Positions 10,801 through 56,187 of a stretch of 64,000 nt of DNA are shown here, piece by piece; positions within the stretch are counted from its first letter, which is position 1; every line of letters begins with the position of its first letter. A model generated the notes under the pieces. It searched no databases. It was not told where the DNA came from and worked only from the letters and a program-made list of their open reading frames with translations. The position numbers and the translations under genes are program-made. Source of the DNA: an uncultured Bdellovibrionales bacterium (lineage in GTDB: Bacteria; Patescibacteriota; Minisyncoccia; Moranbacterales; UBA1568); contig CAZQLN010000003.1 in the NCBI GenBank assembly GCA_964594215.1, positions 25,447-89,446 on the forward strand. The letters are read 5' to 3'.

Positions 10801-10951
10801 CAATCAAGGAGGGATGATGTCTCACGCGGCTATTGTCGCCCGTGAACTAGGTATTCCCTGTATAGTAGGGACAGGGCATATAACAGAAATAGTGAAGACG
10901 GGAGATTTGTTAGAAGTAGATGCTGATAATGGGGTAGTAAGAATTTTATAA
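7892..10951 (+). CDS. PEP-utilizing-enzyme family protein, rifampin-phosphotransferase/PEP-synthase-like: N-terminal PPDK_N ATP-grasp domain plus two tandem (helical domain + phosphohistidine swivel domain) modules; no PEP-utilizers_C TIM barrel
   Basis: PPDK_N-like N-terminus (…VAVRSSATAEDG…, …CDIEWAFEDGKFFIVQSRPIT…). Two swivel motifs GGALCHAAIVARELDKPCIIGT and GGMMSHAAIVARELGIPCIVGT, each preceded by roughly 270 aa of helical region. Confidence 0.75.
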   Translation: MKYTLNFKELGKNDALVAGGKGASLGEMIRAGIPVPDGFVILADTFDLFLKETDLLQEIEAILDGVNHEAIHTVEAASESIQGLILSRPIPEVIQKEIQEKFADLGSQYVAVRSSATAEDGIEHAWAGQLDSYLNTTERDLIEKVRKCWASLFTPRAIFYRFEKGLHSTKISVAVVVQSMVNSEKSGIAFSVHPVTEDYNQLIIEAGFGLGEAIVSGAVTPDSYVVEKSPWKILDINISHQGRALYRIDGGGNEWRDLGESFGSNKVLNEAQIQELSDIIVQIEKHYGFPCDIEWAFEDGKFFIVQSRPITTLSTKGNINLQKIEKIFSRDFTMIALEMDYRMEYQRARPWAKGENPYSPYLVFWRNDGTNKIYFNSKGVEWIQRELEKRVRENKDFLKLVEENVRKGISYIRPVYEAEKAIDRESLIRFVEEFMAAYFWIEAMWWIKGMADENLKDIDCANIVRLREETETLSAATDRVIRKSLEKLYPKLGLLSAMISFDELKGGNIPSEEVLRTRDQGFVLINNEIIIDKNFDDVLKENGLELVEESFQMLGEELEGQSASKGRYTGRVVRVMGHNDFEKVQEGDVLVSPMTMVDFLPVMKIAGAFVTDEGGALCHAAIVARELDKPCIIGTKVATQVFKDGDLIEVDADNGVVRILEKAEELEIGNYQKLFQWPGEFSHFLSSYFMAIYNKHKAISLHDGNMWQSFLPYTSKEKTLKLGLALYSSKQEYEELRKGLTEGFVELTAHFNQVLKKDTLTKEEVGAFFDQALEHYNYYSQTEFFFTDLAYSEMNNVSQIQKNFETFDELKLQGREYLNKIALAPGCYLDRLIEKIAQQLSYDISALKCHSINEILELFDGKSVKSDELVNRNQYFMHGRGSHAEVLTGDTALRKIRDFFAEVAKTNEVKGQIANKGYYQGRARVFRFSLSEINLMDEEIEKMEKGEILIADTTAPEIILACKKAGAIVTNQGGMMSHAAIVARELGIPCIVGTGHITEIVKTGDLLEVDADNGVVRIL

Positions 10952-12741: not shown

Positions 12742-14418
12742 ATGAGACGTGAACACAAAATCCGCTGGCAATTCGCGGCCGTGCTCCTTTTGGGGCTCGT
12801 GTCCGGGCTTATTGCATATCCAAAAGCCATTTCTTTTTTCCCAGCTGGCTACAATTGGCTCAATCAATTACAAGTAAACCGGGGACTTGATCTTGAGGGA
12901 GGTATTCACTTGGAATATGCTGCTGATACTTCGAATATAGCTAAGGATAAAGAAAAAGATGCTCTTCAAGCAGCTGAGGCAGTCATCGAGCGACGCGTCA
13001 ATGCTTTTGGTGTGGGTGAACCATTGGTTCAGCTCTCGAAAGCAGGGAGTGAAAATCGTATCATTGTAGAGCTGCCTGGTATTAAAAATATTGAAGAAGC
13101 CAAGGCGCTGATCAAAGAAACCCCATTTCTTGAATTTCGTGAGCCAGCGAGTGATGAGTTCAAGGCGCAGTTAGCCCAAGATAATGAAAAAGCTCGTGCT
13201 CAAGCGGAAACTATTTTGAATCGTGCTAAGAGCGGTGAAGATTTTTCGAAATTGGCTACCGAGTTCAGTCAGGATCCTGGTTCCAAAAATCAGGGCGGAG
13301 AATTGGATTTCGTGAAAAAAGGTGCTTTTGTTCCAGAATTTGATGAAACCATTTTCCGGGCAGATTTTCCAAAGGGTAAGATCAATGACTCTCTTATCGA
13401 AACTGACTATGGTTACCATATTATCAAGAAACTAGATGAACGAGGTGAGGGAGATGATCGAGAGGTCAAGGCGGCCCACATTCTTTTTCTCAAGAAATCT
13501 ATTGAAACCGACCCACTCTTAGCGTATCAACCAACCGGACTTTCTGGTAAAAACCTCAAAGACGCTTCGGTAACCTATCAGTCGCAAGGATTGGGGTCGC
13601 CACAGATTCAGTTACAGTTTGACGATGAAGGAACAAAATTGTTTGCAGATATTACGAAGCGTAATGTAGGTAAGCCGGTTGCTATTTTTCTTGATAATGA
13701 ACTCCTTCAGGCACCGGTTATTCAAGTAGAAATTCCAAATGGTCAGGCAGTGATCACGGGAGATTACACTATCACTGAAGCCAATGCTCAGGTAAAACGC
13801 CTCAACGAAGGAGCGTTGCCTGTACCGATCAATTTGGTTGGTCAGCAAAGTGTCGATGCCTCTTTGGGTGAAGTCGCATTGAGTCAGAGTCTTAAAGCTG
13901 GCTTTATCGGTCTGGTGGCGGTTGCTCTTTTCATGTTGCTCTTCTATCGTTTCCTCGGTCTTATTGCTGTTTTGGCACTTATCCTCTACACAGCGATGCT
14001 TTTCTCACTTTTCAAACTTTCTGTGCTCACACCATTTCCGATCACGGTGACTCTCTCTGGTATCGCTGGGTTTATTCTCTCAATTGGTATTGCGGTGGAT
14101 GCTAATGTGCTTATTTTCGAACGTACTCGCGAAGAACTCTCATACGGTAAGGGGGCTATCAAATCGATTAAGGAGGGTTTCCGTCGAGCCTGGCCAAGTA
14201 TTCGTGATGGTCATGTCTCGACTCTTCTCACCACCTTTATTCTCGTAGGTTTGGGAACGGGCTTCGTCAAAGGTTTCGCAATTATTCTCGCCTTAGGTGT
14301 GTTGCTCTCTCTCTTTACAGCGGTAGTTTTGGTGCGTACGACTACCACTTTCTTCATTGGAGAGTGGATGGAAAAACATCCATGGCTACTTGTTACTCCT
14401 AAGAAACCTATCGAATAG
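12742..14418 (+). CDS. secD: protein translocase subunit SecD carrying an inserted parvulin-like PPIase segment
   Basis: SecD hallmarks (LDLEGG, IIVELPGIKNIEEAKALIKETPFLEFRE, P1-head, six C-terminal TMs with DANVLIFER). Insert at about aa 135-250: GEDFSKLATEFSQDPGSKNQGGELDFVKKGAFVPEFDETIF…DYGYHIIKK…AAHILF. Confidence 0.85.
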   Translation: MRREHKIRWQFAAVLLLGLVSGLIAYPKAISFFPAGYNWLNQLQVNRGLDLEGGIHLEYAADTSNIAKDKEKDALQAAEAVIERRVNAFGVGEPLVQLSKAGSENRIIVELPGIKNIEEAKALIKETPFLEFREPASDEFKAQLAQDNEKARAQAETILNRAKSGEDFSKLATEFSQDPGSKNQGGELDFVKKGAFVPEFDETIFRADFPKGKINDSLIETDYGYHIIKKLDERGEGDDREVKAAHILFLKKSIETDPLLAYQPTGLSGKNLKDASVTYQSQGLGSPQIQLQFDDEGTKLFADITKRNVGKPVAIFLDNELLQAPVIQVEIPNGQAVITGDYTITEANAQVKRLNEGALPVPINLVGQQSVDASLGEVALSQSLKAGFIGLVAVALFMLLFYRFLGLIAVLALILYTAMLFSLFKLSVLTPFPITVTLSGIAGFILSIGIAVDANVLIFERTREELSYGKGAIKSIKEGFRRAWPSIRDGHVSTLLTTFILVGLGTGFVKGFAIILALGVLLSLFTAVVLVRTTTTFFIGEWMEKHPWLLVTPKKPIE

Positions 14419-29137: not shown

Positions 29138-29248
29138 AGAATAAGCTCATAGCGGAACCCTTGACTTTTAGGAGTTTTGGGTGTATAATAGTACGTTGCA
29201 GTGGTAATTTTGCTTCTGCACAACAGTTCTTACACAAGGAGATAAACC

Positions 29249-29797
29249 GTGTTTCATTCGCTGCGTACATTCGCCGCGAAGATCGCGGCGAATATTATAT
29301 CTCATCGAGTACGGATAGGTACGATAGCTGTAGGTATTGCTACGAACAAGACCATTAATTGGACTTTCGAATTCGTACTCTATCCACTAGTTATTGCACG
29401 TCTTGGCCTGATAATAGGCGGCAGTGTGATGACAATTCTCTCTTTTGTACTATCATATCTTATGCTTTTGGGGTACACCTGGTCAAAGCGTGATTGGCTA
29501 GGGATTGAAACTCTAAAGAATTTAAGAGAGCATTCTGGTGCAAATCGGTGGCAAAAATATATGGCCCAGGTAATGCGAAGAGGAAATTGGCTAGCGTTCA
29601 TTTTTCTCTCAGTGTTTTCTGAACCTGTTGTTACAACGCTGTATATGCGTCGTGGCGCCCACGAGTACAATAAGTTAGATAGAAGTGACTGGCAGATTTT
29701 TGTTGCCTCAACTTTGATTAGCAACTTCTTTTGGACACTCGGAGTAGGCTTCTTGATATGGCTCTTTCGAATGTTTATTGGATCAACTGGCGCATGA
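29249..29797 (+). CDS. hypothetical integral membrane protein (GTG start)
   Basis: AAGGAG (29236-29241) 7 nt upstream of GTG 29249; about 4 TM segments. Confidence 0.5.
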   Translation: MFHSLRTFAAKIAANIISHRVRIGTIAVGIATNKTINWTFEFVLYPLVIARLGLIIGGSVMTILSFVLSYLMLLGYTWSKRDWLGIETLKNLREHSGANRWQKYMAQVMRRGNWLAFIFLSVFSEPVVTTLYMRRGAHEYNKLDRSDWQIFVASTLISNFFWTLGVGFLIWLFRMFIGSTGA

Positions 29798-29829
29798 TTT
29801 AACTAAGGGTTAATCATGCGTCTTTTTTC

Positions 29830-29858
29830 TTGCCCTTTTTGCTTAAATTCTATACAAT
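29830..29858 (+). promoter_or_regulatory. putative promoter TTGCCC-N17-TACAAT upstream of the Cys-rich/HK gene block
   Basis: Hexamers and spacing read directly; 24 nt upstream of the ATG at 29882. Confidence 0.35.
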
Positions 29859-29881
29859 TTAATTAAGAAACAAAAACTTCT

Positions 29882-30295
29882 ATGAGGAATGGACGAACTT
29901 GGGTGTATCTTTTGGGGTTTTTAATTTTGCTTTCCTCGGCAATCCTTTTCTATAGGATCTTTATCCTAAAGGACTATATCATTACTGCTCAGAGCCAGTG
30001 TAACCCTAACCTAGAAACCTGTTTTGTTATTGATTGTACTGAAGGTGATTTAGAGTGTGAAGGACCTACTTACTATAGGAATATTAAAGTGAGAGCAGTT
30101 GACACAACTTGTGGTTTAGAAGATCCGAGGTGTTTGTATGATTTTGCTTGTAGTGAAGAGTCAGGAAATTGCGAAATTGAGTACTGTGATGATTCGAATG
30201 TTCTTGAAGAAGAACGTTGTAGCGGTGAGGAGGATAAAGAAGTTCAGGAACTAGAAGACACCGGTGCTACAGAAGAGATTGAAACAGTATTATGA
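29882..30295 (+). CDS. membrane-anchored, Cys-rich (11 Cys) acidic extracytoplasmic protein, paralog A
   Basis: N-terminal TM; CNPNLETCFVIDCTEGDLECEGPTYY…CEIEYCDD; similar to 32766..33362. Confidence 0.6.
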   Translation: MRNGRTWVYLLGFLILLSSAILFYRIFILKDYIITAQSQCNPNLETCFVIDCTEGDLECEGPTYYRNIKVRAVDTTCGLEDPRCLYDFACSEESGNCEIEYCDDSNVLEEERCSGEEDKEVQELEDTGATEEIETVL

Positions 30296-31068
30296 ATGAA
30301 TTAGTAAATCACGATAAAAATGGCGTTTATAGCAAGTTTTTTGATGCTATAACAGAAGTAAAGGCTCGCTGGGAAAATGATGATTTAAGAAAGGCTGTCG
30401 AAGAAAGGTTGGGAGGTGATATACCAGAAGTTTTTCAACAAGGTCCAAAGGCAACTATTGTAAGGTATATTGCTAGTCCTAATGTAGAGTCCTATTACTT
30501 TCATGATTTAGCAGAGTTAAGTGGCTTGGATCCTTTATATCTTGAGTTTACACAAGATAAGTTTGTAGCTAAAAATCCCTCAAAGTATCATTTGTGTAAA
30601 CTATCCTCAGTAAGTGAGGAAAATAGTGGTGAAAAGTCCGTAAAGGTTGTAGATTTTAATAAGTATGAGGGTAAGCTCCTGAGTGAGATTGAGACATTGA
30701 ATGGAAAAAGGTTAGTTCAATTCCACCATGATCTTTTCACTAAATCTAGTGCCGGAATACAGAAGCCTTTTATATACGATTTCTCAGAATGGTTTCTAAA
30801 GCATAGGAATAAGAATGGTTTCTACTATTTCGACTATCTTGCACTTTTTGTTTGTCATGGCGTCCTTTTTGAAAATTTCTTAGGAGACAAAGAAGAGTCT
30901 AATTTCACAGATGAAATAGTTAAGCCTGCTTTTGAGGAAATAGAGAGAGTTTTCGGTGTTAAACCTCTTATTTTTCCTTTACAGCCTATCAAAGTTGAGG
31001 AACATAAAAATTGGTATGGGTATAAGGACGCTTTACTCGAAGAAATTAGAGAAGAAATAACAAAATAG
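30292..31068 (+). CDS. hypothetical cytoplasmic protein
   Basis: 258-aa ORF overlapping the upstream stop by 4 nt; no motif recognised. Confidence 0.5.
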   Translation: MNELVNHDKNGVYSKFFDAITEVKARWENDDLRKAVEERLGGDIPEVFQQGPKATIVRYIASPNVESYYFHDLAELSGLDPLYLEFTQDKFVAKNPSKYHLCKLSSVSEENSGEKSVKVVDFNKYEGKLLSEIETLNGKRLVQFHHDLFTKSSAGIQKPFIYDFSEWFLKHRNKNGFYYFDYLALFVCHGVLFENFLGDKEESNFTDEIVKPAFEEIERVFGVKPLIFPLQPIKVEEHKNWYGYKDALLEEIREEITK

Positions 31069-31070
31069 AT

Positions 31071-32762
31071 ATGGATAGTTTAATTGTAGGAAATTTAGAG
31101 TATTGCGGAGAGATTGTTCAAGATACTGTGGATTTGCTTTATTATTCACACTTTTCTACCATTATTCTCTCACTTTTTATTTCATCTTTTGTTTTTTTTA
31201 AAAATAGAAGTTCTGTTGCTGCTAAGCTTCTTTTTGTAATGTGTTTAACTTTTGCGTTGTGGACTTCTGTTGATCTTACGGTATGGCTCACGTATGATTT
31301 CTCGGCTCTTTCAGTTTTTTTATGGGCCTTTTTTGGAATTTTCTATCTTCTTATATTTGTTTTCGCATATATTTTTTTTGCTGTTTTTTCTCAAGAAAAG
31401 GACGACATTTCTCTCGGAGAAAAAACATTTCTTTCATTTTTAATTGCCCCCGTAATTCTCTTGATGCCATTTCAGTACAACGTGGTTGGATACGATGCCG
31501 TTGATTGCATTGTTACGGAGGGCACTTTCTATTCAAGTTACTACTATTTAGCAAGTCTCCTTATAATCTTTGCTGTCTTTTTAAAGGGCATACTTGTTTA
31601 TAAAAAAACTGAACAAAAGGAGAAAAAACAACAAATATTGTACTTATTAGCAGGCCTTATTCCTTTCCTTTCGTTATTCTTTTCTCTTGGATTTCTGGTC
31701 TCATATCTTGTGAATAACGGAGTAATTGGAGAATTTGGTTTTGAACAGTATGGACTTTTTGGAATGCCTATCTTTGTAGCTATTATTGGTTATATAGTTG
31801 TTCGTTTTAAAGCTTTTGATGTTAAGTTAATCGGAGCACAGGCGCTGATATTCATTCTGGTTGCTCTTATTGGGTCTCAGTTTTTTTATGCAAAATCTCA
31901 GACTGACTATACCTTAGATGCACTTACTTTGATTGCTGTACTTATTGTAGGATACTTTCTAATTCGTTCAGTCAAAAAAGAAATTGAAAGGAAAGAACAA
32001 TTAGAGAAGTTGTCATATAGCTTAGAAAAGGCTAATGATCGGCTCGAGGAGCTCGACAAGCAGAAGTCGGAGTTTATCTCGATTGCTTCACACCAGCTTC
32101 GTACACCGCTGACCGCTATTCGAGGGTATATCTCGCTGGCACTCGAGGGAGCTTATGGTAAGGTCAAGGGGACTCCGATAGAAGATATAATGAATAAGAT
32201 GTACACCATCGATCTGCGACTCTCACAGTTGGTGGAGGATCTGCTCAATGTTTCTAAGATCGAAGCTGGTAAAGTGCAATACAAATGGGAGAGTGTCACT
32301 CTCGATCCTATTGTGAGTGAACTCTATGATATGTTTGCTGTTTTGGCTGAGAAGAAAGGGCTCAAACTTCACATGATCAAACCAGAGACTCAGCTTCCAG
32401 TAATGAAGCTTGATATCAATAAAATCAAAGAGATTCTCTCTAACCTGATCGATAATGCTATCAAATACACAGAGAAGGGCAGCGTGACTATCCGAGTAGA
32501 GCAAGATGCTACAGTAGCTCGAGTAGTGATCGAGGACACTGGTATCGGTATTTCCAAAGAGGATGCTTTGCGTTTATTCGGGAAGTTTATCCGTACGGAG
32601 ACTACTCAGAAGATGGATGCTGGTGGTAGCGGGCTCGGCTTGTTTGTGGGCAAGACTTTTGTTGAGGGTCATGGCGGAAGAGTCTATGCTACGAGTGAGG
32701 GTGTAGGTAAGGGTTCGAGCTTCATCGTAGAGTTGCCTCTGATTAATCCAAATGCTTCTTAG
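31071..32762 (+). CDS. sensor histidine kinase with about 8-TM membrane-embedded sensor domain (HisKA + HATPase_c)
   Basis: H-box SHQLRTPLTAIRGY; N, G1 (DTGIGI), G2 (GGSGLGL) boxes; N-terminal 300 aa polytopic. Confidence 0.8.
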   Translation: MDSLIVGNLEYCGEIVQDTVDLLYYSHFSTIILSLFISSFVFFKNRSSVAAKLLFVMCLTFALWTSVDLTVWLTYDFSALSVFLWAFFGIFYLLIFVFAYIFFAVFSQEKDDISLGEKTFLSFLIAPVILLMPFQYNVVGYDAVDCIVTEGTFYSSYYYLASLLIIFAVFLKGILVYKKTEQKEKKQQILYLLAGLIPFLSLFFSLGFLVSYLVNNGVIGEFGFEQYGLFGMPIFVAIIGYIVVRFKAFDVKLIGAQALIFILVALIGSQFFYAKSQTDYTLDALTLIAVLIVGYFLIRSVKKEIERKEQLEKLSYSLEKANDRLEELDKQKSEFISIASHQLRTPLTAIRGYISLALEGAYGKVKGTPIEDIMNKMYTIDLRLSQLVEDLLNVSKIEAGKVQYKWESVTLDPIVSELYDMFAVLAEKKGLKLHMIKPETQLPVMKLDINKIKEILSNLIDNAIKYTEKGSVTIRVEQDATVARVVIEDTGIGISKEDALRLFGKFIRTETTQKMDAGGSGLGLFVGKTFVEGHGGRVYATSEGVGKGSSFIVELPLINPNAS

Positions 32763-32765
32763 CCT

Positions 32766-33362
32766 ATGAATGTCAAAGATACATTTCTGGTAGTTCTATG
32801 GATCATCATTTTTGGCGTTTCTACAGCTGTATCTTTCAAGGTGTATTTCTTAGACAAGGATTATGATTTTGTGACTCTAGTTCCTTGTGATCCTATGACA
32901 GAAGTGTGTTTTGTGGCAACGTGTGATCCAGAGAGTGACACATACTTAGAAGATATCTGTTTGACTGCAGAAGAAGGGCAGACAGAGAGGTATTTCAACT
33001 ATATTAGAAAGAAAATGAAGAATGTAGACCAGTGTGATTCTCGTGATGAAGAATGTGCGCCTCTTGTTTGTGAGGAAAATGAAGAGGGGTGCGAGATAAT
33101 TACCTGTAACGAAGAAACGTTAGCAGAGTATGCAGATGAGGGCACTGAGTGTAGTGAGATAATTATCCCAGAAGAAGAGACTGTAGAAGAAGAATCAACT
33201 GAAGCAGCCCCCGAAGAAGAGGTTCCTTCAGCTTCTCCAGAAACAGAAGTAGCTCCAGCGCCTGTGGTTGAAGAGACTATACCTCAGACAGCTCCAGAAC
33301 CAGCTCCGGCCCCTACGGAAGCTCCTCTAGATTCAGAGCCAACCCATAACCTGCCTATTTAA
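32766..33362 (+). CDS. membrane-anchored Cys-rich acidic extracytoplasmic protein, paralog B, with Pro/Glu-rich tail
   Basis: CDPMTEVCFVATCDPESDTYLEDIC…CEIITCNEE; tail PEEETVEEE…PAPAPTEAP. Confidence 0.6.
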   Translation: MNVKDTFLVVLWIIIFGVSTAVSFKVYFLDKDYDFVTLVPCDPMTEVCFVATCDPESDTYLEDICLTAEEGQTERYFNYIRKKMKNVDQCDSRDEECAPLVCEENEEGCEIITCNEETLAEYADEGTECSEIIIPEEETVEEESTEAAPEEEVPSASPETEVAPAPVVEETIPQTAPEPAPAPTEAPLDSEPTHNLPI

Positions 33363-33371
33363 AGTACGTCT

Positions 33372-35072
33372 ATGTTTAATCCACTTGCCTGTGAATGGGT
33401 ACCAACGACACTGATAGGGCTTTCTGCCAATGTATCGGACAATGTCATCTACTATTCTCACTATGGGCCGCTTCTTTTGGCCGTAGCTATGTTTTTGTTT
33501 ATCTTTTTTACTGACAGAGCTCTTTATCTTAACAAGGTATTGATGACCATGATTGGTTTTGTGTGTCTGTGGGTAATGACAGATATGTATCTCTGGGTAG
33601 CAGCCACTGGTCATGAAACAATGTTCTTCTGGGCAATTCTAGTTTTCTTTGAAACCTCAATCTATGTTTCAGCTCTGTATTTTACGTATGTTTTCATTCA
33701 GCAGAAAGCACCACACTTTTTCTTCAAACTGCTAGGAGTTTTATTTTATTTAGCACCAGCTATTCTTTTGCCAACTAAGTATACTCTTGATTTTTATGAC
33801 TTACGGAATTGTGATCGTGATGTCGTAGAGGGTCCAGTGATCTTTTATCTCTATATTCCATATGGAGCTATCATGGCCCTTATTGCTTGTATCGCACTCT
33901 ATGGTGCCTGGAAGCAACGTGAGCGAGCTCGAGAGATTCTCACGGTTAGTTTCGGAGCTCTGATGTTCCTCTCTACCTTCTTCTGGGGCTTGGTGGCTGG
34001 ATCTTTCACTGAGGATTGGCTTTTGAGTCAGGCAGGATTGTTCGGTCTGCCGGTGTTTATTGGTTTCTTAGCTTATGCCACTACTCGTTATGAGACCCTT
34101 AGAGTTAAGCTGGTTTCTGTGCAGTTCTTCGTGGCTTCAGTCATGCTCCTTATTGGAGCACAGTTGTTCTTCGTGGAGGAGACACTAGGTATCATCTTGA
34201 TCATTTGTACTCTTATTCTTACTACTTTGTTTAGTATGATCATGACAAGGGCTATCAAGACAGAGTTGAAACGTAAAGAAGATCTTCAAGAATTAACCGT
34301 ATCTCTCACCACTGCTAACAAGCAACTCAAAGAGCTCGATAATGCTAAGACGGAGTTCCTCTCGATTGCTTCTCACCAGCTCCGTACGCCGCTAACCGCT
34401 ATCAAGGGCTATATTTCATTGATTCTCGAAGGCTCCTATGGTGAGGTGAGTGCGAGTGTGCAAGATGTTTTGAATAAGCTCTATCTGGTGAATAGTCGCA
34501 TGGTTAATCTGGCAGAGGATCTCTTGAACGTGACCCGTATCGATGCTGGTCGAGTCCAGTACAATTATCACAAGGCTGTACTTGAAAAAGTGCTACAGGA
34601 AGCGGTAGAGGTATTTCGTCTCACCGCTCAAGAAAAGGGTCTGGTTTTGACCCTCGACCTACCAGAAACTCCGCTACCAGAAATGATGATTGATGCTCGT
34701 AAGATCCAGGAAGTATGTTCAAATTTGATTGATAACTCGATCAAATATACCAAACAGGGCAGCGTGGCGGTCAAGTTGGAAGCCTTACAAGATCGAGCGG
34801 TTATTAGTGTCAAGGATACGGGTATTGGTATTCTTCCGGAAAACAAAGATAAACTTTTCGCCAAATTCGTACGCAGTAAAGAGACAAATATTCTTGATGT
34901 TTCTGGTACGGGCCTGGGTCTGTATGTGGGCAAGAACTTCGTGGAGGCTCATGGAGGACGGATTTATGCTGAATCAGAGGGTAGGGATATGGGATCTAAG
35001 TTCATTATCGAACTTCCATATATCAATCCTATGCTCAATGCCATCTCTCCAAACTGGATGATCGAGAATTAG
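33372..35072 (+). CDS. sensor histidine kinase, paralog of 31071..32762 (multi-TM sensor + HisKA + HATPase_c)
   Basis: H-box SHQLRTPLTAIKGY, DTGIGI, GTGLGL; same N-terminal topology (YYSHY… region). Confidence 0.8.
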   Translation: MFNPLACEWVPTTLIGLSANVSDNVIYYSHYGPLLLAVAMFLFIFFTDRALYLNKVLMTMIGFVCLWVMTDMYLWVAATGHETMFFWAILVFFETSIYVSALYFTYVFIQQKAPHFFFKLLGVLFYLAPAILLPTKYTLDFYDLRNCDRDVVEGPVIFYLYIPYGAIMALIACIALYGAWKQRERAREILTVSFGALMFLSTFFWGLVAGSFTEDWLLSQAGLFGLPVFIGFLAYATTRYETLRVKLVSVQFFVASVMLLIGAQLFFVEETLGIILIICTLILTTLFSMIMTRAIKTELKRKEDLQELTVSLTTANKQLKELDNAKTEFLSIASHQLRTPLTAIKGYISLILEGSYGEVSASVQDVLNKLYLVNSRMVNLAEDLLNVTRIDAGRVQYNYHKAVLEKVLQEAVEVFRLTAQEKGLVLTLDLPETPLPEMMIDARKIQEVCSNLIDNSIKYTKQGSVAVKLEALQDRAVISVKDTGIGILPENKDKLFAKFVRSKETNILDVSGTGLGLYVGKNFVEAHGGRIYAESEGRDMGSKFIIELPYINPMLNAISPNWMIEN

Positions 35073-35080
35073 AGGGTAAT

Positions 35081-35109
35081 TTGTAAAAACCCTTCTATTG
35101 AGGTATATT
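35081..35109 (+). promoter_or_regulatory. putative promoter TTGTAA-N17-TATATT upstream of the response-regulator gene
   Basis: Direct reading; 22 nt before the ATG at 35132. Confidence 0.3.
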
Positions 35110-35131
35110 TAAGGTACTAATTTGATATTTT

Positions 35132-35971
35132 ATGGCTCGAGTCCTTCTTGTAGAAGATGATCCGTTCATCGGTGAAATCTATATCAAAAAATTTGAAGCA
35201 TCTGGTTTTGACGTGCTCAATGTGGTAACCGGTAAGGCTGTATTGAAGGCGGTAGCTGAAAACGGACCTTTTGATATCGTCCTCTTGGATTTAGTCATAC
35301 CTGAAATGAGTGGTATGGAGGTGCTCCAAGAGCTTCGTACCAAACCTGATTATCCGAAGGACCTTAAGATAGTGGTTTTCAGTAATCTATCCAGTCAGGA
35401 GGATAGAGATCAGTGTATAGCCCTTGGTGCCAACGGCTTCATCTCCAAGACAGAATTTTCACCTTCAGAGGTTATCGAAGAGGTGAATCGTTTTCTTCGT
35501 CAGTGGAGTGAGCAGGGAAAAAATGAGGTTCGTATGAATCCAGCCCCAGCTACTCCTACCACAGAAACTGCTGCGCCAGCTCCTGCTACTACCGCTAAGA
35601 AGATTCTTCTTATTGAAGATCAAGAAGATTTCGTAGAGATGTTTGGTAAGCGTCTTCAGGATGAAGGTTATGCAGTGACTATCGCTCGTGATGGCAAGGC
35701 TGGTCTAGATGAAGCAACTGCCAATGACTATGATATGATCATCTCAGATATCTTAATGCCGAGTATGAATGGTCATGAGATGGTAGTGAAGCTTCGTGAG
35801 ACTGAAGCTGGTAGAAATATTCCGATCTTTCTTTTTTCTGCTTCTGTGGAAGTCGAAAATCTTCATGAGTTGACTGAGGCAGGGATAGTCAATCGAGTCT
35901 TCGAGAAGACTCAACTGACCCCAAGTGAACTCGCTTACGCAGTCAATGATTTTTTTGCCGGCAAGAAGTAA
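35132..35971 (+). CDS. response regulator with two tandem receiver (REC) domains and no output domain
   Basis: REC1 VLLVEDDP…DIVLLDLVIPEMSG; Pro/Ala/Thr linker; REC2 ILLIEDQED…DMIISDILMPSMNG. Confidence 0.8.
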   Translation: MARVLLVEDDPFIGEIYIKKFEASGFDVLNVVTGKAVLKAVAENGPFDIVLLDLVIPEMSGMEVLQELRTKPDYPKDLKIVVFSNLSSQEDRDQCIALGANGFISKTEFSPSEVIEEVNRFLRQWSEQGKNEVRMNPAPATPTTETAAPAPATTAKKILLIEDQEDFVEMFGKRLQDEGYAVTIARDGKAGLDEATANDYDMIISDILMPSMNGHEMVVKLRETEAGRNIPIFLFSASVEVENLHELTEAGIVNRVFEKTQLTPSELAYAVNDFFAGKK

Positions 35972-35978
35972 TATTATT

Positions 35979-37298
35979 ATGGAACGAGTGTTGATACAAG
36001 ACGCTCCACAGCATGTTGGAGAAGTCGTGAAAATGAGCGGTTGGATAGATGTCAGAAGGGATCATGGAAAGATGATCTTTTTTGTCTTGCGTGATCGTAC
36101 AGGTCGTATCCAGAGTATCGTACTCCCTGATGCTCCAGAGGTAATAGAGGTGGCTTCTCATGTCAAAATCCAGTCTGCTGTTCAGGTAGAGGGGCTGGTC
36201 AAGGAGCGACCTAACAAAAAAGCCACTCCTGGTAGTTTAGATACTTATGAACTAGAACTAAAAAGTCTCACCGTGCTTGGTAGTCCAGTAGAAGATTTGC
36301 CAATTGATGTCTCCCAAGTGGAGATGGGGCTTCAACTAGATACTCTTTTGAATAATCGTACTATCGCTCTTCGTAATGATAAGATTCGAGGCATATTCAC
36401 TATGTACTCTGAGCTCCTTGCTTCTTACGAACAGGCTATGAGAGGGGCTGGCTTTACCGAAATTAAGACCCCGAAGATTCTTGAGGCAGCGACTGAGGGT
36501 GGAGCGAACTTTTTCAAGATTTCCTATTTTGATCGTGAAGCGTATCTCGCTCAGAGCCCGCAGTTCTACAAGCAAGCGGGTATGAGTGTTTTTGAGAGAG
36601 TCTTCGAAATCGGAACGGTGTTTCGGGCCGAACCTCATTTCACTACTCGCCATGTCAATGAGTACACCGGATTTGATGCCGAGATGGGTTTCATTGAAGG
36701 AGTGGAAGATGTCATGGATGCCCTTGAGGAAGCGATGTATGCCATGTTTGAACATATTGCTAAGCATTGTAGCGCAGAACTGGCTCTGCATGATGCCGAA
36801 GCGCCTGCCCGTGTCGCCGTGCCTCGGATACGTCTCACTGAAGCCCTCGAGATTCTCAAGAAAGAATTTGATAAAGAAGTAGAGGATCAAGATATTGATA
36901 GTGAAGGGGAGAGGATGATTTGTCAGTATGTGAAAGAAAAATACGGAAGTGATATGGTATTTCTCACTCATTATCCGACTCACCTCAGACCTTTTTATAG
37001 TATGCCGAGTACTGATGATCCAAAGTATACAGAAACTTTCGATCTTCTTTTTCGTGGAGTAGAAATTGCCTCAGGTGGTCAGCGTATTCATCTACCAGAA
37101 ATGCTCGAAGAAAGTATCAAAGCCAAAGGCCTAAACCCTGATGATTTCAAAGATTACGTCGATATTTTCCGTTTTGGTACCCCACCACACGGTGGTTGGG
37201 GACTTGGTTCAGAGCGCATCATTCAGAGACTTCTTAATCTTGGAAGTATCAAAGAGGCAGTACTCTATCCGCGTGATGTGAAAAGACTCGCCCCATAA
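35979..37298 (+). CDS. aspS: aspartate--tRNA ligase, short archaeal/eukaryal type (possibly non-discriminating)
   Basis: N-terminal OB fold (GWIDVRRDHGKMIFFVLRDRTG); class II motif 2 (FRAEPHFTTRHVNEYTGFDAE) and motif 3 (GGWGLGSERIIQ). ATG 35979 follows the upstream stop. Confidence 0.85.
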   Translation: MERVLIQDAPQHVGEVVKMSGWIDVRRDHGKMIFFVLRDRTGRIQSIVLPDAPEVIEVASHVKIQSAVQVEGLVKERPNKKATPGSLDTYELELKSLTVLGSPVEDLPIDVSQVEMGLQLDTLLNNRTIALRNDKIRGIFTMYSELLASYEQAMRGAGFTEIKTPKILEAATEGGANFFKISYFDREAYLAQSPQFYKQAGMSVFERVFEIGTVFRAEPHFTTRHVNEYTGFDAEMGFIEGVEDVMDALEEAMYAMFEHIAKHCSAELALHDAEAPARVAVPRIRLTEALEILKKEFDKEVEDQDIDSEGERMICQYVKEKYGSDMVFLTHYPTHLRPFYSMPSTDDPKYTETFDLLFRGVEIASGGQRIHLPEMLEESIKAKGLNPDDFKDYVDIFRFGTPPHGGWGLGSERIIQRLLNLGSIKEAVLYPRDVKRLAP

Positions 37299-44247: not shown

Positions 44248-44267
44248 CTCTTGAAAATGCCTATAAT
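44240..44267 (+). promoter_or_regulatory. putative promoter TTGCTT-N16-TATAAT for lysS (short or leaderless 5' UTR)
   Basis: -10 TATAAT at 44262-44267; ATG at 44281. Confidence 0.3.
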
Positions 44268-44280
44268 AAGCATATTGCTT

Positions 44281-45747
44281 ATGGCTGAAGATTTACGAGA
44301 AGATATTATTGCGACCAAAAACCAGAAATTAGAAACCCTTTCTAAGGCTTTTTCGGTTGTTTATCCTGAGAAAAATCATCGCACCCATACCAACCAGCAA
44401 GCCCTTGATGGTTTCGATGAATTTACGAAGAATGGGGAAGTACTTATCTTAGTTGGACGCGTGCGCTCATTGCGTATTATCGGCAAGATCGGCTTTGCCC
44501 ATATTGAAGATGGAGATGCTAAGATTCAAGTTTTTCTTAATTTACAGGTTTTGGGTGATGAAAAGTTCAAACTTTTTGTTGATACTATTGAAACAGGGGA
44601 TTTTATAGAAGTAACAGGGAAGCTCTTTCTGACTAAAAAAGAAGAAAAAACTCTCGAAGTAGCCGATTGGACTATTCTGGGTAAGTCTATGCGGCCTATC
44701 CCGACGGAATTCTACGGATTGAAAGATGAAGAAGAGTTATTGCGTCGCCGCTATCTTGATTTGTTGGCTAACCCAGAAACACGAGAACTGTTTCGTAAGA
44801 AAAATATTTTTTGGCAAACAGTACGGAATACACTGGTAGATGAGGGTTTCTTAGAGGTACAGACGCCTGTTCTTGAGCATGTGCCCGGTGGCGCTGATGC
44901 TGAGCCTTTTATTACTCATCACAATGCTTTGGATCAAGATTTTTACTTACGTATTTCTCTTGAACTTCATCTAAAAAGATTGTTAGTCGGTGGGTATGAA
45001 AAGGTATTCGAGATCGGACGTCTGTTTCGTAATGAAGGTATCGACAGAGAGCATCTCCAAGAATACGATGATGTTGAATTTTATTGGGCTTATGGAGATC
45101 TAGATAAAGGAATAGCGCTCACCGAAAAGATGATTAAGGCCATCGTATTCAACGTGACTGGTGGTTATGAAACTATTTTTGAGGGTGAAACTATTGATTG
45201 GGGTCAAGATTATCCTCGGATAGACTATTTTGTGGAATTTGAAAAAGAAACTGGTATTAATCTTTCAGATGAGGTTTCTGTCAAAGACTTGAAAGCAAAA
45301 GCTGATGAGCTTGGTATTAAGTACGAAGATTCTTATGGCAAGGGAAGGATGATTGACACTATTTACAAGAGGACTGTCCGTCAACGATTGATCCAGCCTT
45401 GTATCCTTGTAGGACACCCTATTGAAGTATCGCCACTCTCCAAGACGGATCCAGCAAATCCGAAAAAGGTTTTGCGAGCACAGTTAGTGGCCGTCAAAAG
45501 TGAATTGACGAATTCTTTCGCAGAGCTCAATGATCCAATGGAACAACGGCGTCGTTTTGAGGAGCAGATGAAGCTACGAGAAGATGGTGATAATGAAGCT
45601 CAAATGATTGATGAGGATTTCTTACAAGCACTCGAGTACGGTATGCCACCAGCCTTTGGTTTTGGTATGAGCGAAAGACTTTTCGCCATTCTGATGGATC
45701 GCTCTATTCGAGAAACGGTTATTTTCCCACCGATGAAGAGTAGATAA
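44281..45747 (+). CDS. lysS: lysine--tRNA ligase (class II)
   Basis: OB anticodon-binding domain, class II motifs (…FRNEGIDREHLQEYDDVEFYWAY…, …GFGMSERLFAILMD…). ATG 44281 preferred over the track start 44251 (TTG). Confidence 0.85.
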   Translation: MAEDLREDIIATKNQKLETLSKAFSVVYPEKNHRTHTNQQALDGFDEFTKNGEVLILVGRVRSLRIIGKIGFAHIEDGDAKIQVFLNLQVLGDEKFKLFVDTIETGDFIEVTGKLFLTKKEEKTLEVADWTILGKSMRPIPTEFYGLKDEEELLRRRYLDLLANPETRELFRKKNIFWQTVRNTLVDEGFLEVQTPVLEHVPGGADAEPFITHHNALDQDFYLRISLELHLKRLLVGGYEKVFEIGRLFRNEGIDREHLQEYDDVEFYWAYGDLDKGIALTEKMIKAIVFNVTGGYETIFEGETIDWGQDYPRIDYFVEFEKETGINLSDEVSVKDLKAKADELGIKYEDSYGKGRMIDTIYKRTVRQRLIQPCILVGHPIEVSPLSKTDPANPKKVLRAQLVAVKSELTNSFAELNDPMEQRRRFEEQMKLREDGDNEAQMIDEDFLQALEYGMPPAFGFGMSERLFAILMDRSIRETVIFPPMKSR

Positions 45748-53858: not shown

Positions 53859-54725
53859 ATGAAGTATACCTTCTCAACCGCTCTTGTGGCGGTGTCGCTC
53901 GCTTTTGCTTCCCAGGCCTCGGCCAAGGAAGTGAAGCCGGCAGAGATGGAGGTTCGCGGCCTTCACGCCGTCGAAGCTCCCTGGCAACCAGAGAGTCTGT
54001 CGCTTGACACGCGTCAAGTGCAGGCACTCCAGGTAATTACTATCCCACTTTCGGAGGCAACAAAGAAAGAATGGGCAAAAGTTAACCGTGATAAACGTGG
54101 TATTCGAATGATCGTCGATGGAGAAGATGGCAAGCCTCGGCTTGTTGGACGACCCGTCATCAAGGCGACGTTTCGCGTATTGCTTATGAAGGATGGTGAC
54201 ATTCTTCCTATGAGCGAAGCCGAAATGATTACCACTGGCGGTGAGGCCATCAATATCCTCTTGCCGCCTGACGTTGATTTCCGTGGAACGACAGCCTTTG
54301 TGTTGGCGGATCGCGGACGTCATGCACTTACTCTTGCGGGTGAGATTATCGATCTCGACAAGGGAAAGAAACGACTTATTACGTCCAAGTTGCCCGATCA
54401 AGTTGCCACTTCGGTGGTGGAAGACACGGCTTTGAGTGTACGGGGTGAGCCTTCTGGGTTGTACCTCGATATGCTGGAAGCCACATTTAGCGAACACGCT
54501 GTTCTCAACAACAGTCTTCGCTATTCCGGTCTTCCCGGCACTTTTCTTTCCAAGGATATGACCCGTTACCCTTCGGTGGCGGCTCTCTATACGAGGGAAG
54601 ACACAGTCGGCGATCGCTTGATTACCTGCGGCAATGGAACACTGGATCCGTCCATGTTCACTGGTATTGGAGCCCTTGTTAAAGTGGGCTCCAACCTCAT
54701 CGTCGCACTCAAGAAACGTTGCTAG
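53859..54725 (+). CDS. secreted hypothetical protein, GC-rich (about 52-55%)
   Basis: Signal peptide MKYTFSTALVAVSLAFASQASA; GGAG 8 nt upstream; composition unlike its flanks. Confidence 0.6.
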   Translation: MKYTFSTALVAVSLAFASQASAKEVKPAEMEVRGLHAVEAPWQPESLSLDTRQVQALQVITIPLSEATKKEWAKVNRDKRGIRMIVDGEDGKPRLVGRPVIKATFRVLLMKDGDILPMSEAEMITTGGEAINILLPPDVDFRGTTAFVLADRGRHALTLAGEIIDLDKGKKRLITSKLPDQVATSVVEDTALSVRGEPSGLYLDMLEATFSEHAVLNNSLRYSGLPGTFLSKDMTRYPSVAALYTREDTVGDRLITCGNGTLDPSMFTGIGALVKVGSNLIVALKKRC

Positions 54726-54828
54726 GAGAAATTCGATGACCTGGCAGCACGGCAACCCTATCGATCAATTCTGGTCGAGACGGTTGCTCTGTGCGCCGTC
54801 TCGACTTCCATCAAGGAGTGTAAGTATC

Positions 54829-56187
54829 ATGAAACGTTTTCTCCTGACCCTTGGGGTCGCCCTCTCGGTGTCGATGACTGGATTCATTTCCAGTTCGGCA
54901 TCGGCGGCGACCACTCGAAATGCCGAAGGGTATGTCGAGTGGAGCCGGGTGGGCGCCGCTACCATGAACTTGTTTCAGGGTGGTGGTCCACGCCTTGATC
55001 TGGCACGCGTTTATGCGATGCGCCAGATGGGTGTGAGCGAACCTGAAATTGCTCAAGTCCTCCTGGACTTTCATGCAAAAAACTTCGAGGAAGGCGTTAT
55101 CCGCAAGGGTGACAAGTTCAAGACGATGTCTTTTGCTAACAAGAAAGAGGTCAAGGTGATGCATAACGTCATCTTGACTGCAGACGGCGAATACAGGGTT
55201 TGGCGGATGCGCACCAAAAGCGGACTGACTATCACGTTCGTTGAGAAGTGTGCCAATGTCGGCATCGAGGAAACTCCGCCGGCACCGCCTGCCAAAGAAA
55301 ACCCTCCGCCGGTAGAGGAAACTCCGCCGGCACCTCCGCCTCCCTTTGTTCCGCCGACGACGGTCGAAGAAGGCCAGCGTCTCTGCAATAAGCTTCGGGT
55401 CAACGGTGTTCTCGGTTTCGAATGGGAACCGCTCATCCATGGCTCGGACTCGCGTAGCTTGTATGCTGCTGCGGGTATCTATTGCATGCGTCTGACCAAG
55501 TACGGTCAAATCGGTTTCGGTCTCGGTGGCCAAGCTGCCTTCTACGGTGGCAAGGTCAAACATGTTGGTCGTTTCCAGGGCCATCTCTATGGCGCAGGAC
55601 CGGCAGTCATGATCGTGAACGACAAAGGTCTCGACTACGAAGGCAAGTTGATGATCATGGACTACACATCAAGCTACCGCCAAGGTGGCTACCGTTCCCA
55701 TGAGCATCGCACGGTGATTGGGATGAGCCTGGCTCATAACGACTACCGTGGCCGGATTGACGGCACTGGCAAGCCAGAAACGCAGTACTTCGCCTTGTGC
55801 GGAGTGCCGATTGGTGGTCATACCACGGAAACGTGGAATGGTCAGAAAATCGGCAACGGCTCGAAGCTCGGGCTTGTCTGCAACGCTGGCCTTCGGAAGT
55901 ATCTGACGGAGGGCAAGAAGTGGAATCCGTATATTCAAGGCGGACTCCTGGGTGAAGCTCGCAAGGGTGGAGCCGACTTCTTGTCTGGCAGTCTGCGTCT
56001 TGGTGCTTCGAATAAGCATCGGACGATCGGTTGTGGAGCGGGTATCGACGTGAACCTGCTTAAGGGCGGTATCCATCCTGGCCTCGGCTGTTGGGTGGAT
56101 GTTGCTGGCATGGTACGCCACAAGCGTACGGCCTCACGGGCGGCAGCTATTGCAGCTGACCAGCTTCCGGCAACCAAGAACGAATAA
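54829..56187 (+). CDS. secreted hypothetical protein with proline-rich linker (EETPPAPPAKENPPPVEETPPAPPPPFVPP), GC-rich
   Basis: AAGGAG then ATG 54829; signal peptide MKRFLLTLGVALSVSMTGFISSSASA. The track ORF from 54634 is an upstream extension. Confidence 0.6.
   Translation: MKRFLLTLGVALSVSMTGFISSSASAATTRNAEGYVEWSRVGAATMNLFQGGGPRLDLARVYAMRQMGVSEPEIAQVLLDFHAKNFEEGVIRKGDKFKTMSFANKKEVKVMHNVILTADGEYRVWRMRTKSGLTITFVEKCANVGIEETPPAPPAKENPPPVEETPPAPPPPFVPPTTVEEGQRLCNKLRVNGVLGFEWEPLIHGSDSRSLYAAAGIYCMRLTKYGQIGFGLGGQAAFYGGKVKHVGRFQGHLYGAGPAVMIVNDKGLDYEGKLMIMDYTSSYRQGGYRSHEHRTVIGMSLAHNDYRGRIDGTGKPETQYFALCGVPIGGHTTETWNGQKIGNGSKLGLVCNAGLRKYLTEGKKWNPYIQGGLLGEARKGGADFLSGSLRLGASNKHRTIGCGAGIDVNLLKGGIHPGLGCWVDVAGMVRHKRTASRAAAIAADQLPATKNE

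Follow-up and report, generated by a model that had tools for sequence, protein, structure and literature searches.

Tandem nine-helix sensor histidine kinases and ten-cysteine membrane-anchored proteins in a Patescibacteriota genome: a candidate accessory co-sensor system

Background

The 64,000-nucleotide stretch analysed here (hereafter the window, in whose own numbering all positions are given) comes from an uncultured bacterium of the Patescibacteriota lineage, named as a member of the Bdellovibrionales in its assembly (GCA_964594215.1, contig CAZQLN010000003.1, positions 25,447 to 89,446), and carries at 29249-35971, on the + strand, a tightly packed string of genes centred on a two-component system. 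Two paralogous sensor histidine kinases (HK-A and HK-B) and a regulator with two receiver domains stand together with two paralogous proteins, CysA and CysB, each of which has one membrane anchor and a predicted ectodomain with ten conserved cysteines; a cytoplasmic protein of 258 residues (hyp258) and a small protein with four predicted transmembrane (TM) helices (up182) complete the string. Homologues of these genes recur near one another in many genomes of the candidate phyla radiation (CPR). It is possible, and is put forward here as a tentative reading, that the Cys-rich proteins act as membrane-anchored accessory co-sensors for kinases that lack an ectodomain.

CPR bacteria (Patescibacteria) form a large and mostly uncultured group with tiny genomes and very few signalling systems. 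The locus defines four uncharacterised families, namely a 10-Cys ectodomain protein, a 9-TM sensor domain, a HUP-fold protein (hyp258) and a 4-TM protein, which are repeatedly found together beside one of the few two-component systems that these bacteria have kept. If the Cys-rich protein is indeed the external sensor of the kinase, the locus offers a testable entry point to the perception of a surface or a host by CPR bacteria; if the co-sensor idea is wrong, what is left is still a clearly defined family of CPR surface proteins, widespread and with a confident fold model that has no counterpart in the PDB.

Results

The genes of the string are listed in Table 1. From CysA to the regulator, positions and strand of the open reading frames (ORFs) agree with those given in an earlier note on this DNA, which had been made from the letters and a list of ORFs. 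The successive junctions from CysA to the regulator measure -4, +2, +3, +9 and +59 nt, and the regulator is followed by a gene for an AspRS-type synthetase. Nearly all of the window is coded on one strand, with a GC content of about 0.43. Homologues come almost only from metagenome-assembled genomes (MAGs) of Moranbacteria, Paceibacterota, Parcubacteria and other CPR groups, which marks the window as DNA of a CPR bacterium. No convincing terminator was found inside the gene string by a consensus scan; the best promoter-like site of the region (11/12) lies at 29161-29189, 5' of up182, and the numbers of promoter and terminator sites are no different from those in shuffled sequence.

Table 1. 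Genes of the two-component locus, in window coordinates
Gene	Position	Strand	Length (aa)	Features
up182	29249..29797	+	182	small 4-TM membrane protein; no Cys; no Pfam match
CysA	29882..30295	+	137	TM at about residues 10-28; 10-Cys ectodomain; acidic tail; net charge -23 after the TM
hyp258	30292..31068	+	258	cytoplasmic; Rossmann/HUP-like fold
HK-A	31071..32762	+	563	9-TM, N-out sensor in residues 1-300; C12 in N-tail, C146 in outer loop; HisKA with H341; HATPase_c
CysB	32766..33362	+	198	TM anchor; 10-Cys ectodomain; acidic P/E/T/A-rich tail of about 70 aa ending HNLPI; net charge -39
HK-B	33372..35072	+	566	divergent HK-A paralogue; 9-TM plan as in HK-A; outward C7 and C147; H335
Response regulator	35132..35971	+	279	two intact receivers, D53 and D206; P/A/T-rich linker; no output domain

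CysA and CysB are paralogues far above chance expectation (29% identity, E=3e-8), and alignment, hydropathy and family column statistics bear out the view of the earlier note that they share a conserved Cys core, a membrane anchor and an acidic character. Its count of 10 Cys in CysB is correct, while the 11 counted in CysA should read 10. A word-index search for homologues retrieved one near-identical protein for CysA and six relatives of 75-100% identity for CysB. An exhaustive HMMER search with a profile of both proteins identified 432 representative clusters at a threshold of E<=1e-3, of which 64 also pass E<=1e-10; most have 110-230 residues and are matched over their full length, and the family hidden Markov model (HMM) matches CysA at 7.6e-33 and CysB at 3.6e-41. 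As regards domain fusions, there is one large match, P0128 (4841 aa), which seems to be a surface protein with Ig repeats matched through low-complexity sequence.

All ten conserved Cys are present in 121 of the 130 aligned members at a fixed spacing, C-x6-C-x4-C-x(4-11)-C-x(17-24)-C-x6-C-x4-C-x6-C-x4-C-x(8-14)-C, so that the loss of cysteine conservation, named in the earlier note as a point on which its proposal could fail, is not what is observed. The core motif of the family is C-D-P-x-x-E-x-C-F-x-x-x-C, preceded by a [DN][YF] motif. The N-terminus is basic (M-D-K-K-S-K; KK.K) and leads into a single hydrophobic helix with a conserved Ser (S19), after which an aromatic-basic belt, [YF][YW][RK], is conserved. 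CysA and CysB both carry the marks of this CPR family of TM-anchored 10-Cys ectodomains, that is, the TM helix, [DN][YF], CDPxxExCF and the ten Cys. The acidic tail is highly variable in length and is absent in the short members of 111-125 aa; the net charge from the first Cys onward has a median of -19 and reaches -57 in the same alignment.

Conservation of residues in and beside the TM helix, together with the failure to find a conserved cleavage motif in the family alignment, argues that this segment is a signal anchor and is not cleaved off as a signal peptide. Of the two descriptions in the earlier note, membrane-anchored thus has better support than secreted. The ectodomain probably contains five disulfides rather than a metal cluster, since the number of Cys is even, CxxC motifs are absent, there is only about one His per protein (median), C3 and C4 are lost together where in-domain Cys are missing, and the domain is predicted to lie outside. 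The metal sensing that the earlier note had considered is unlikely, on the same grounds, to take the form of a Cys-ligated cluster. A zinc-finger or iron-sulfur Cys-cluster protein was considered as a separate candidate and rejected, as ligand motifs of the CxxC/CxxH type are lacking and the domain is predicted to be extracellular.

Searches of Pfam, NCBIfam and PADLOC gave nothing significant for CysA, CysB, hyp258, up182 or the sensor halves of the kinases, even at E up to 10, and profile searches of the PDB with alignments of the Cys-rich family, of hyp258 and of the kinase sensor gave no usable match. The AlphaFold2 (AF2) model of the Cys-rich protein is confident and has no fold match in the PDB; no literature on the family was found. 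The closest relative of CysA is P0009 (48% identity), whose gene likewise lies between a gene like up182 (the up182/c188 cluster) and hyp258. CysB-type proteins form a subfamily of their own, with an acidic P/E/T/A-rich linker of about 70 residues and the ending (H/N)NLPI. This ending (window 33340-33362 in CysB) is conserved also in P0008, P0010 and P0011 and could be a sorting or docking signal.

HK-A and HK-B are two-component sensor histidine kinases of the HisKA class (PhoR-WalK-like), as judged from their domains and motifs. The HisKA domain (PF00512) is matched at E=3.9e-14 in HK-A and 7.5e-14 in HK-B, with an H box (SHQLRTP) containing H341 and H335, respectively, and HATPase_c (PF02518) at E=2e-24 and 2.9e-24, with the N, G1 and G2 boxes (NLIDN[AS]IKYT, DTGIGI and G[ST]GLGL) all present. 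The two kinases are 41% identical over 544 aa (E=3e-134). No Pfam or NCBIfam model matches the N-terminal 300 residues of either, even at E up to 10. Hydropathy and the positive-inside rule predict nine TM helices per kinase in an N-out/C-in arrangement; the sensor is thus nearly all membrane-embedded and begins with the YYSH motif, as had been noted, with nine helices in place of the approximately eight first counted. The outer loops comprise 12-21 residues with 0-1 Lys/Arg, the N-tail has 25 residues and the inner loops are rich in Lys/Arg, with six in the loop at 172-191. Loops and tail of such lengths leave the kinases without an ectodomain of their own. Intramembrane-sensing histidine kinases in the strict sense are small proteins with two TM helices and a linker of under 25 aa; with nine predicted helices over about 300 residues, HK-A and HK-B have only the absence of an ectodomain in common with them.

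Conservation in the sensor was examined in 87 non-identical kinases with the 9-TM sensor, taken from the fetched loci and numbered as HK-A. Among the conserved positions are YYSH, W64, W72, W85, G228-L-F-G231, K252 and Q257, and D68 is kept in 30 of the 34 kinases of a first, smaller alignment. The outer loop that joins TM4 to TM5 contains an invariant Cys146 (87/87). An outer N-tail Cys occurs in every kinase with an intact N-terminus: it lies within 30 residues upstream of YYSH in 80 kinases, and among the seven without a clean YYSH motif it is present in five, the other two being N-terminally truncated. This outward pair of Cys is kept in kinases with or without a Cys-rich gene nearby.

The earlier note had described duplicated modules of a Cys-rich protein and a kinase. 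Duplication there is, but the description as two equal modules is wrong: the conserved register is up182-CysA-hyp258-HK-A, followed by CysB-HK-B, and the upstream 4-TM gene up182 is part of the conserved unit. By sequence comparison, the locus consists of a canonical module, up182 to HK-A, and a derived pair, CysB-HK-B. HK-A is a typical member of its family, with 33-47% sensor identity to the kinases of most other loci, whereas the HK-B sensor is only 27% identical to that of HK-A (54% in the catalytic part) and no closer to other family members. Kinases of the HK-B type occur only directly downstream of CysB-type genes (loci L001-L007, L198-L202 and L204-L206), and in relatives whose CysB orthologue is 42-43% identical the order HK-A/CysB/HK-B, followed by the regulator, is unchanged, with gaps of a few nt. 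CysB evolves faster than the kinases, with 42% identity against 69-75% in the same relatives. The association of CysB with HK-B, both of which differ strongly from the canonical proteins, is suggestive, and no other single observation argues as strongly for a functional pairing.

The regulator contains two PF00072 receiver domains, with the key residues D9/D10, D53, S84 and K106 in the first and E162/D163, D206, S236 and K259 in the second, and no output domain; the tandem-receiver architecture without a DNA-binding output is thus confirmed. REC-REC proteins of 265-279 aa, followed by AspRS, recur 3' of kinases of the 9-TM family and are also found where only one family kinase is nearby, so the duplication of the kinase does not account for the presence of two receivers. 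The helix that follows the phospho-acceptor His in the dimerisation and histidine phosphotransfer (DHp) domain is near-identical in HK-A and HK-B (SHQLRTPLTAI[R/K]GYISL[A/I]LEG), which weakly suggests that both kinases feed the same receiver or receivers.

For hyp258 there are 120 homologues, of which practically every one stems from CPR genomes and metagenomes. AF2 models hyp258 with confidence (pLDDT, the predicted local distance difference test score, of 92) as a Rossmann/HUP-type fold with matches at the level of fold only, and hydropathy indicates no TM segment. The single Pfam domain found among the homologues is a SET domain (residues 262-354) in a natural fusion, P0201, and a stand-alone SET-domain gene often lies between hyp258 and the kinase (L121, L161, L175, L186 and other loci). 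The fusion and this gene order together suggest a functional hyp258-SET pair attached to the 9-TM kinase family. hyp258 probably acts in the cytoplasm, as an enzyme or a nucleotide-binding partner, together with the SET protein beside the kinase. up182 has about four TM segments by hydropathy; homologues of the up182/c188 cluster flank Cys-rich genes in many loci and lie within 3 kb upstream of the kinase in 12 of 47 loci.

The linkage of Cys-rich genes and kinases was examined from both sides. A Cys-centred set was assembled with the degenerate DNA pattern DY...A...CDP..E.CF, which yielded 109 loci in species-representative genomes, annotated by ORF calling and HMM labels; a kinase-centred set of 80 metagenome loci was retrieved with the sensor-domain alignment. 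Among eligible Cys-centred loci, a family kinase follows on the same strand within 4 kb downstream in 23/47 (49%) and lies within 4 kb upstream in 1/40. Conversely, a Cys-rich gene is found within 3 kb upstream of the kinase in 17/47 eligible kinase-centred loci (36%), and within 1 kb downstream in none. The absence of Cys-rich genes beside such kinases elsewhere, by which the earlier note would have had its proposal judged, is therefore not what the genomes show: Cys-rich genes lie 5' of family kinases in many other CPR genomes, in MAGs labelled Moranbacteria, Paceibacterota, Peribacteraceae and Falkowbacteria.

The linkage persists through several different gene orders. The commonest full orders are Cys-up182-hyp258-(SET)-HK and up182-Cys-hyp258-HK, the second being that of the window. 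Independent look-ups from hyp258 homologues revealed up182-Cys-hyp258-HK in a Candidatus Falkowbacteria genome and EamA-Cys-hyp258-HK on a 436-kb scaffold. Genes that recur between the Cys-rich gene and the kinase encode up182/c188-type proteins, an EamA transporter, a GARS-like ATP-grasp protein and AdoMet decarboxylase, and, more rarely, agmatinase-like, formyltransferase-like and GNAT-like proteins and a methyltransferase.

Two side observations concern these loci. Source annotation misses genes of both families, namely the Cys-rich gene at 6596-6997 of L209 (the 436-kb scaffold) and the kinase at 5272-7122 of L207 (the Falkowbacteria GenBank assembly), so annotation-based censuses would undercount the module. 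Genes of polyamine type, which do not occur in the window, recur between the Cys-rich gene and the kinase in L001, L006, L012, L013, L027, L052, L182, L195 and other loci; they include AdoMet decarboxylase, agmatinase-like and saccharopine-DH-like genes, the EamA exporter and the GARS-like ATP-grasp gene.

Other features of the window were also recorded. Two class II synthetases of the Asp/Asn/Lys type, each with PF00152 and PF01336, lie 7 kb apart at 35925-37298 and 44251-45747 (+); in many CPR genomes the first of these genes shows synteny with the REC-REC regulator. A SecD of 558 aa (12742-14418, +) has, between SecD_1st and the P1 head, a peptidyl-prolyl isomerase domain of the PPIC type (PF13616/PF00639, residues 144-233), which places a SecD-isomerase fusion on the outer face of the translocon. 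A protein of 1019 aa (7892-10951, +) combines a PPDK_N ATP-binding domain and two mobile domains of the phosphoenolpyruvate (PEP)-utilising type with no recognised C-terminal catalytic domain. The segment at 53859-56187 (+) has a GC content of 0.54 against a background of 0.43 and contains ORFs of 288 and 517 aa without Pfam match, overlapped by long antisense ORFs; the first ORF has a start resembling a signal peptide, and the stretch could be foreign DNA or encode an unusual surface protein.

Discussion

From the gene anatomy, the hydropathy topologies, the conservation of the cysteines, the gene linkage and the paralogous pair, we infer a possible multi-component envelope-sensing system, whose known occurrence is so far confined wholly or mainly to CPR bacteria. 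Kinases and Cys-rich proteins complement each other in topology: the kinases have short outer loops, and the Cys-rich proteins have one TM helix and a charged ectodomain (-23 and -39). The Cys-rich proteins would thus supply the ectodomain that the kinases lack. Each would consist of a single N-in/C-out anchor, a compact ectodomain close to the membrane, probably held by its five disulfides, and a long polyanionic tail directed outward, and may bind to its kinase by way of the conserved TM helix and juxtamembrane residues, in contact with the 9-TM bundle. A condition of the surface would be reported in this way to the kinase, the candidates being the redox state of the outer face, the load of cations or polycations, and contact. 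In this scheme the ancestral HK-A would have CysA as its partner, along with the 4-TM protein and cytoplasmic hyp258, and the derived HK-B would have CysB; both kinases probably phosphorylate the one REC-REC regulator, which would act by protein contacts rather than by DNA binding. The co-sensor role fits this anatomy and the co-diverged CysB/HK-B pair, and of the readings considered it has the best support, though it is somewhat less likely than not.

In the chief competing explanation, the Cys-rich proteins serve the envelope or surface of CPR bacteria in a general way, for example as wall-spanning polyanions, adhesins or structural proteins; their genes lie in an old syntenic block with those of the kinases, and they have no signalling role. 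Several observations weigh against the co-sensor role or in favour of this explanation. AspRS, a housekeeping gene, occurs within 5 kb downstream of the kinase in 16/35 kinase-centred loci, which is as tight a linkage as that of the Cys-rich gene, so that inherited gene order can give linkage of that size, and inherited synteny does explain much of it. The GT4, c480, ABC exporter, MreB and MreC genes of the window are also syntenic with relatives, in a long block GT4-c480-...-HK-RR-AspRS-ABC-MreB-MreC (RR, response regulator). Direct adjacency of the Cys-rich gene and the kinase is a minority arrangement, seen in 4/90 Cys-centred and 7/80 kinase-centred loci, and the immediate upstream neighbour of the kinase is usually not a Cys-rich gene, with hyp258 in that place in 21 of 80 loci and a SET-domain gene in 16 of 80. 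Roughly half of the Cys-rich genes have no family kinase nearby; some clades sit after dnaK-dnaJ or beside the prepilin peptidase gene (PilD), and several copies can occur in one genome (for example, L010 with L021, and L035 with L077). About 64% of the kinases have no Cys-rich gene within 3 kb and keep their Cys pair all the same. Finally, a mirror-tree comparison of 43 Cys/kinase pairs gave r=0.31 for the sensor and r=0.40 for the catalytic part, with a partial r of 0.23 (permutation p=0.003), a signal of shared phylogeny and not of sensor-specific co-evolution.

The same counts can be viewed in another way, as a receiver-domain regulator gene lies within 5 kb downstream of the kinase in 15/35 kinase-centred loci, and the Cys-rich gene is thus linked to the kinase about as often as the presumed cognate regulator. 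A mere envelope protein in an inherited block also fits poorly with the polar, same-strand linkage (23/47 downstream against 1/40 upstream), with its survival through many local rearrangements, with the overlapping junctions where the genes adjoin (-3 or -7 in four of the seven cases in the kinase-centred set), with the recurrence of the module in a Falkowbacteria genome, and above all with the constant company of the derived HK-B and its own divergent CysB. Gene neighbourhood, the sole basis of the functional link, is only moderately informative given the synteny control. The envelope-protein explanation is judged somewhat unlikely and is the main rival of the co-sensor role.

If the Cys-rich proteins are co-sensors, the ten conserved Cys of the accessory protein and the N-tail and invariant outer-loop Cys of the kinase, both sets of which are predicted to face outward, raise the question of a thiol-disulfide relay, in which the ectodomain would exchange disulfides with the two outward Cys of the kinase and so sense the extracytoplasmic redox state. 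A precedent is HbpS-SenS-SenR, in which a secreted accessory protein senses redox state and acts on a kinase of the membrane (PMC4991794). Structural disulfides, however, would explain an even and invariant set of Cys equally well, the kinases without a nearby Cys-rich gene retain the pair, and no thioredoxin-like or Dsb-like gene is among the recurrent neighbours; this specific form of the co-sensor role is regarded as quite unlikely.

The acidity of the ectodomains and the polyamine-type genes that recur between the two partners in other genomes would suit a different co-sensor, whose polyanionic tail binds cations (Ca2+, Mg2+ or polyamine) and whose occupancy is read by the kinase. The great variation in tail length, up to complete absence in the shortest members, speaks against it, as does the lack of polyamine genes in the operon of the window, and acidic P/E/T-rich tails are also typical of wall spacers, so that a cation or polycation co-sensor appears improbable.

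The peptide-pheromone pair of Agr/Com logic raised in the earlier note, in which a Cys-rich precursor would be processed, released and sensed by the adjacent kinase, would account for a small, faster-evolving gene placed directly 5' of a multi-TM kinase and for the tandem duplication of the pair, but it is very improbable, because the product is a folded domain of 90 residues with invariant Cys kept across CPR lineages and with a conserved TM anchor and juxtamembrane motif in place of a conserved cleavage site, the kinases are of the HisKA type, the regulator has no LytTR or other DNA-binding domain, no AgrB-like or C39-ABC processing or export gene was found in the operon with Pfam and NCBIfam, and the Cys-rich gene is one to three genes away from the kinase in most genomes. 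A reading of the locus as a defence system was also considered and rejected.

The co-sensor role can be extended to a surface-sensing class of CPR bacteria's own, comprising a disulfide-rich, polyanionic and membrane-anchored co-receptor of new fold, the 4-TM protein, the 9-TM kinase with its outward Cys pair and the cytoplasmic HUP-fold/SET pair, which would monitor extracytoplasmic redox state, polycations or host contact and pass the signal to a REC-REC regulator without direct DNA binding, the polyamine-type genes wedged into other loci belonging to the same physiology. This full picture is speculative and, taken as a whole, unlikely.

Comparison with known systems

Kinases of the LiaFSR type have 2-4 TM helices; LiaS is of the HisKA_3 type, and the regulators are DNA-binding proteins of the NarL type. 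The present locus, in contrast, has a 9-TM HisKA sensor, a putative accessory ectodomain, predicted to be disulfide-rich and belonging to an unannotated family, and a REC-REC regulator. The likeness lies in the division of labour: in the three-component accessory systems LiaF-LiaS-LiaR, VraTSR and GraXSR of Firmicutes, an ectodomain-less kinase relies on a co-transcribed membrane or accessory protein (PMC3543457, PMC3128592, PMC8774646), and here also a kinase without a real ectodomain is accompanied by the gene of a candidate accessory protein. Scans with Pfam and NCBIfam revealed no sequence relationship of the parts of the locus to LiaFSR-type accessory proteins.

In HbpS-SenS-SenR of Streptomyces, a membrane-embedded kinase learns of redox stress through an accessory protein outside the cytoplasm (PMC4991794, PMC3754957). 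HbpS is a secreted octamer that binds haem and iron, and SenR binds DNA, whereas the Cys-rich proteins are TM-anchored; there is no homology between HbpS and CysA or CysB, in which Pfam finds nothing. In BceS-BceAB, an ABC transporter encoded nearby governs the conformation of the kinase through TM contacts (bioRxiv 10.1101/2020.02.28.969956); the putative partner here has a single TM helix and may be joined by the 4-TM protein.

With AgrC/AgrD and ComD/ComC the locus shares a multi-TM kinase with a small gene directly upstream, and paralogous pairs. In Agr/Com systems the kinase is of the HPK10 type, the regulator is a LytTR protein, and the signal is a short peptide with a dedicated protein for its processing or export; none of these hallmarks is present in this operon. 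The regulator resembles FrzZ of Myxococcus, a stand-alone dual-receiver protein without an output domain, which belongs to a chemosensory pathway with a CheA-type kinase; the kinase partners here are of the HisKA type. Dual receivers of this kind act by protein contacts or as phosphate sinks.

By analogy, therefore, the system would work like the three-component accessory kinases (LiaFSR, GraXSR, BceS-BceAB and HbpS-SenS-SenR) while being homologous to none of their accessory parts. What the locus joins is an ordinary HisKA/REC core and four uncharacterised partner families that occur mainly or only in CPR bacteria.

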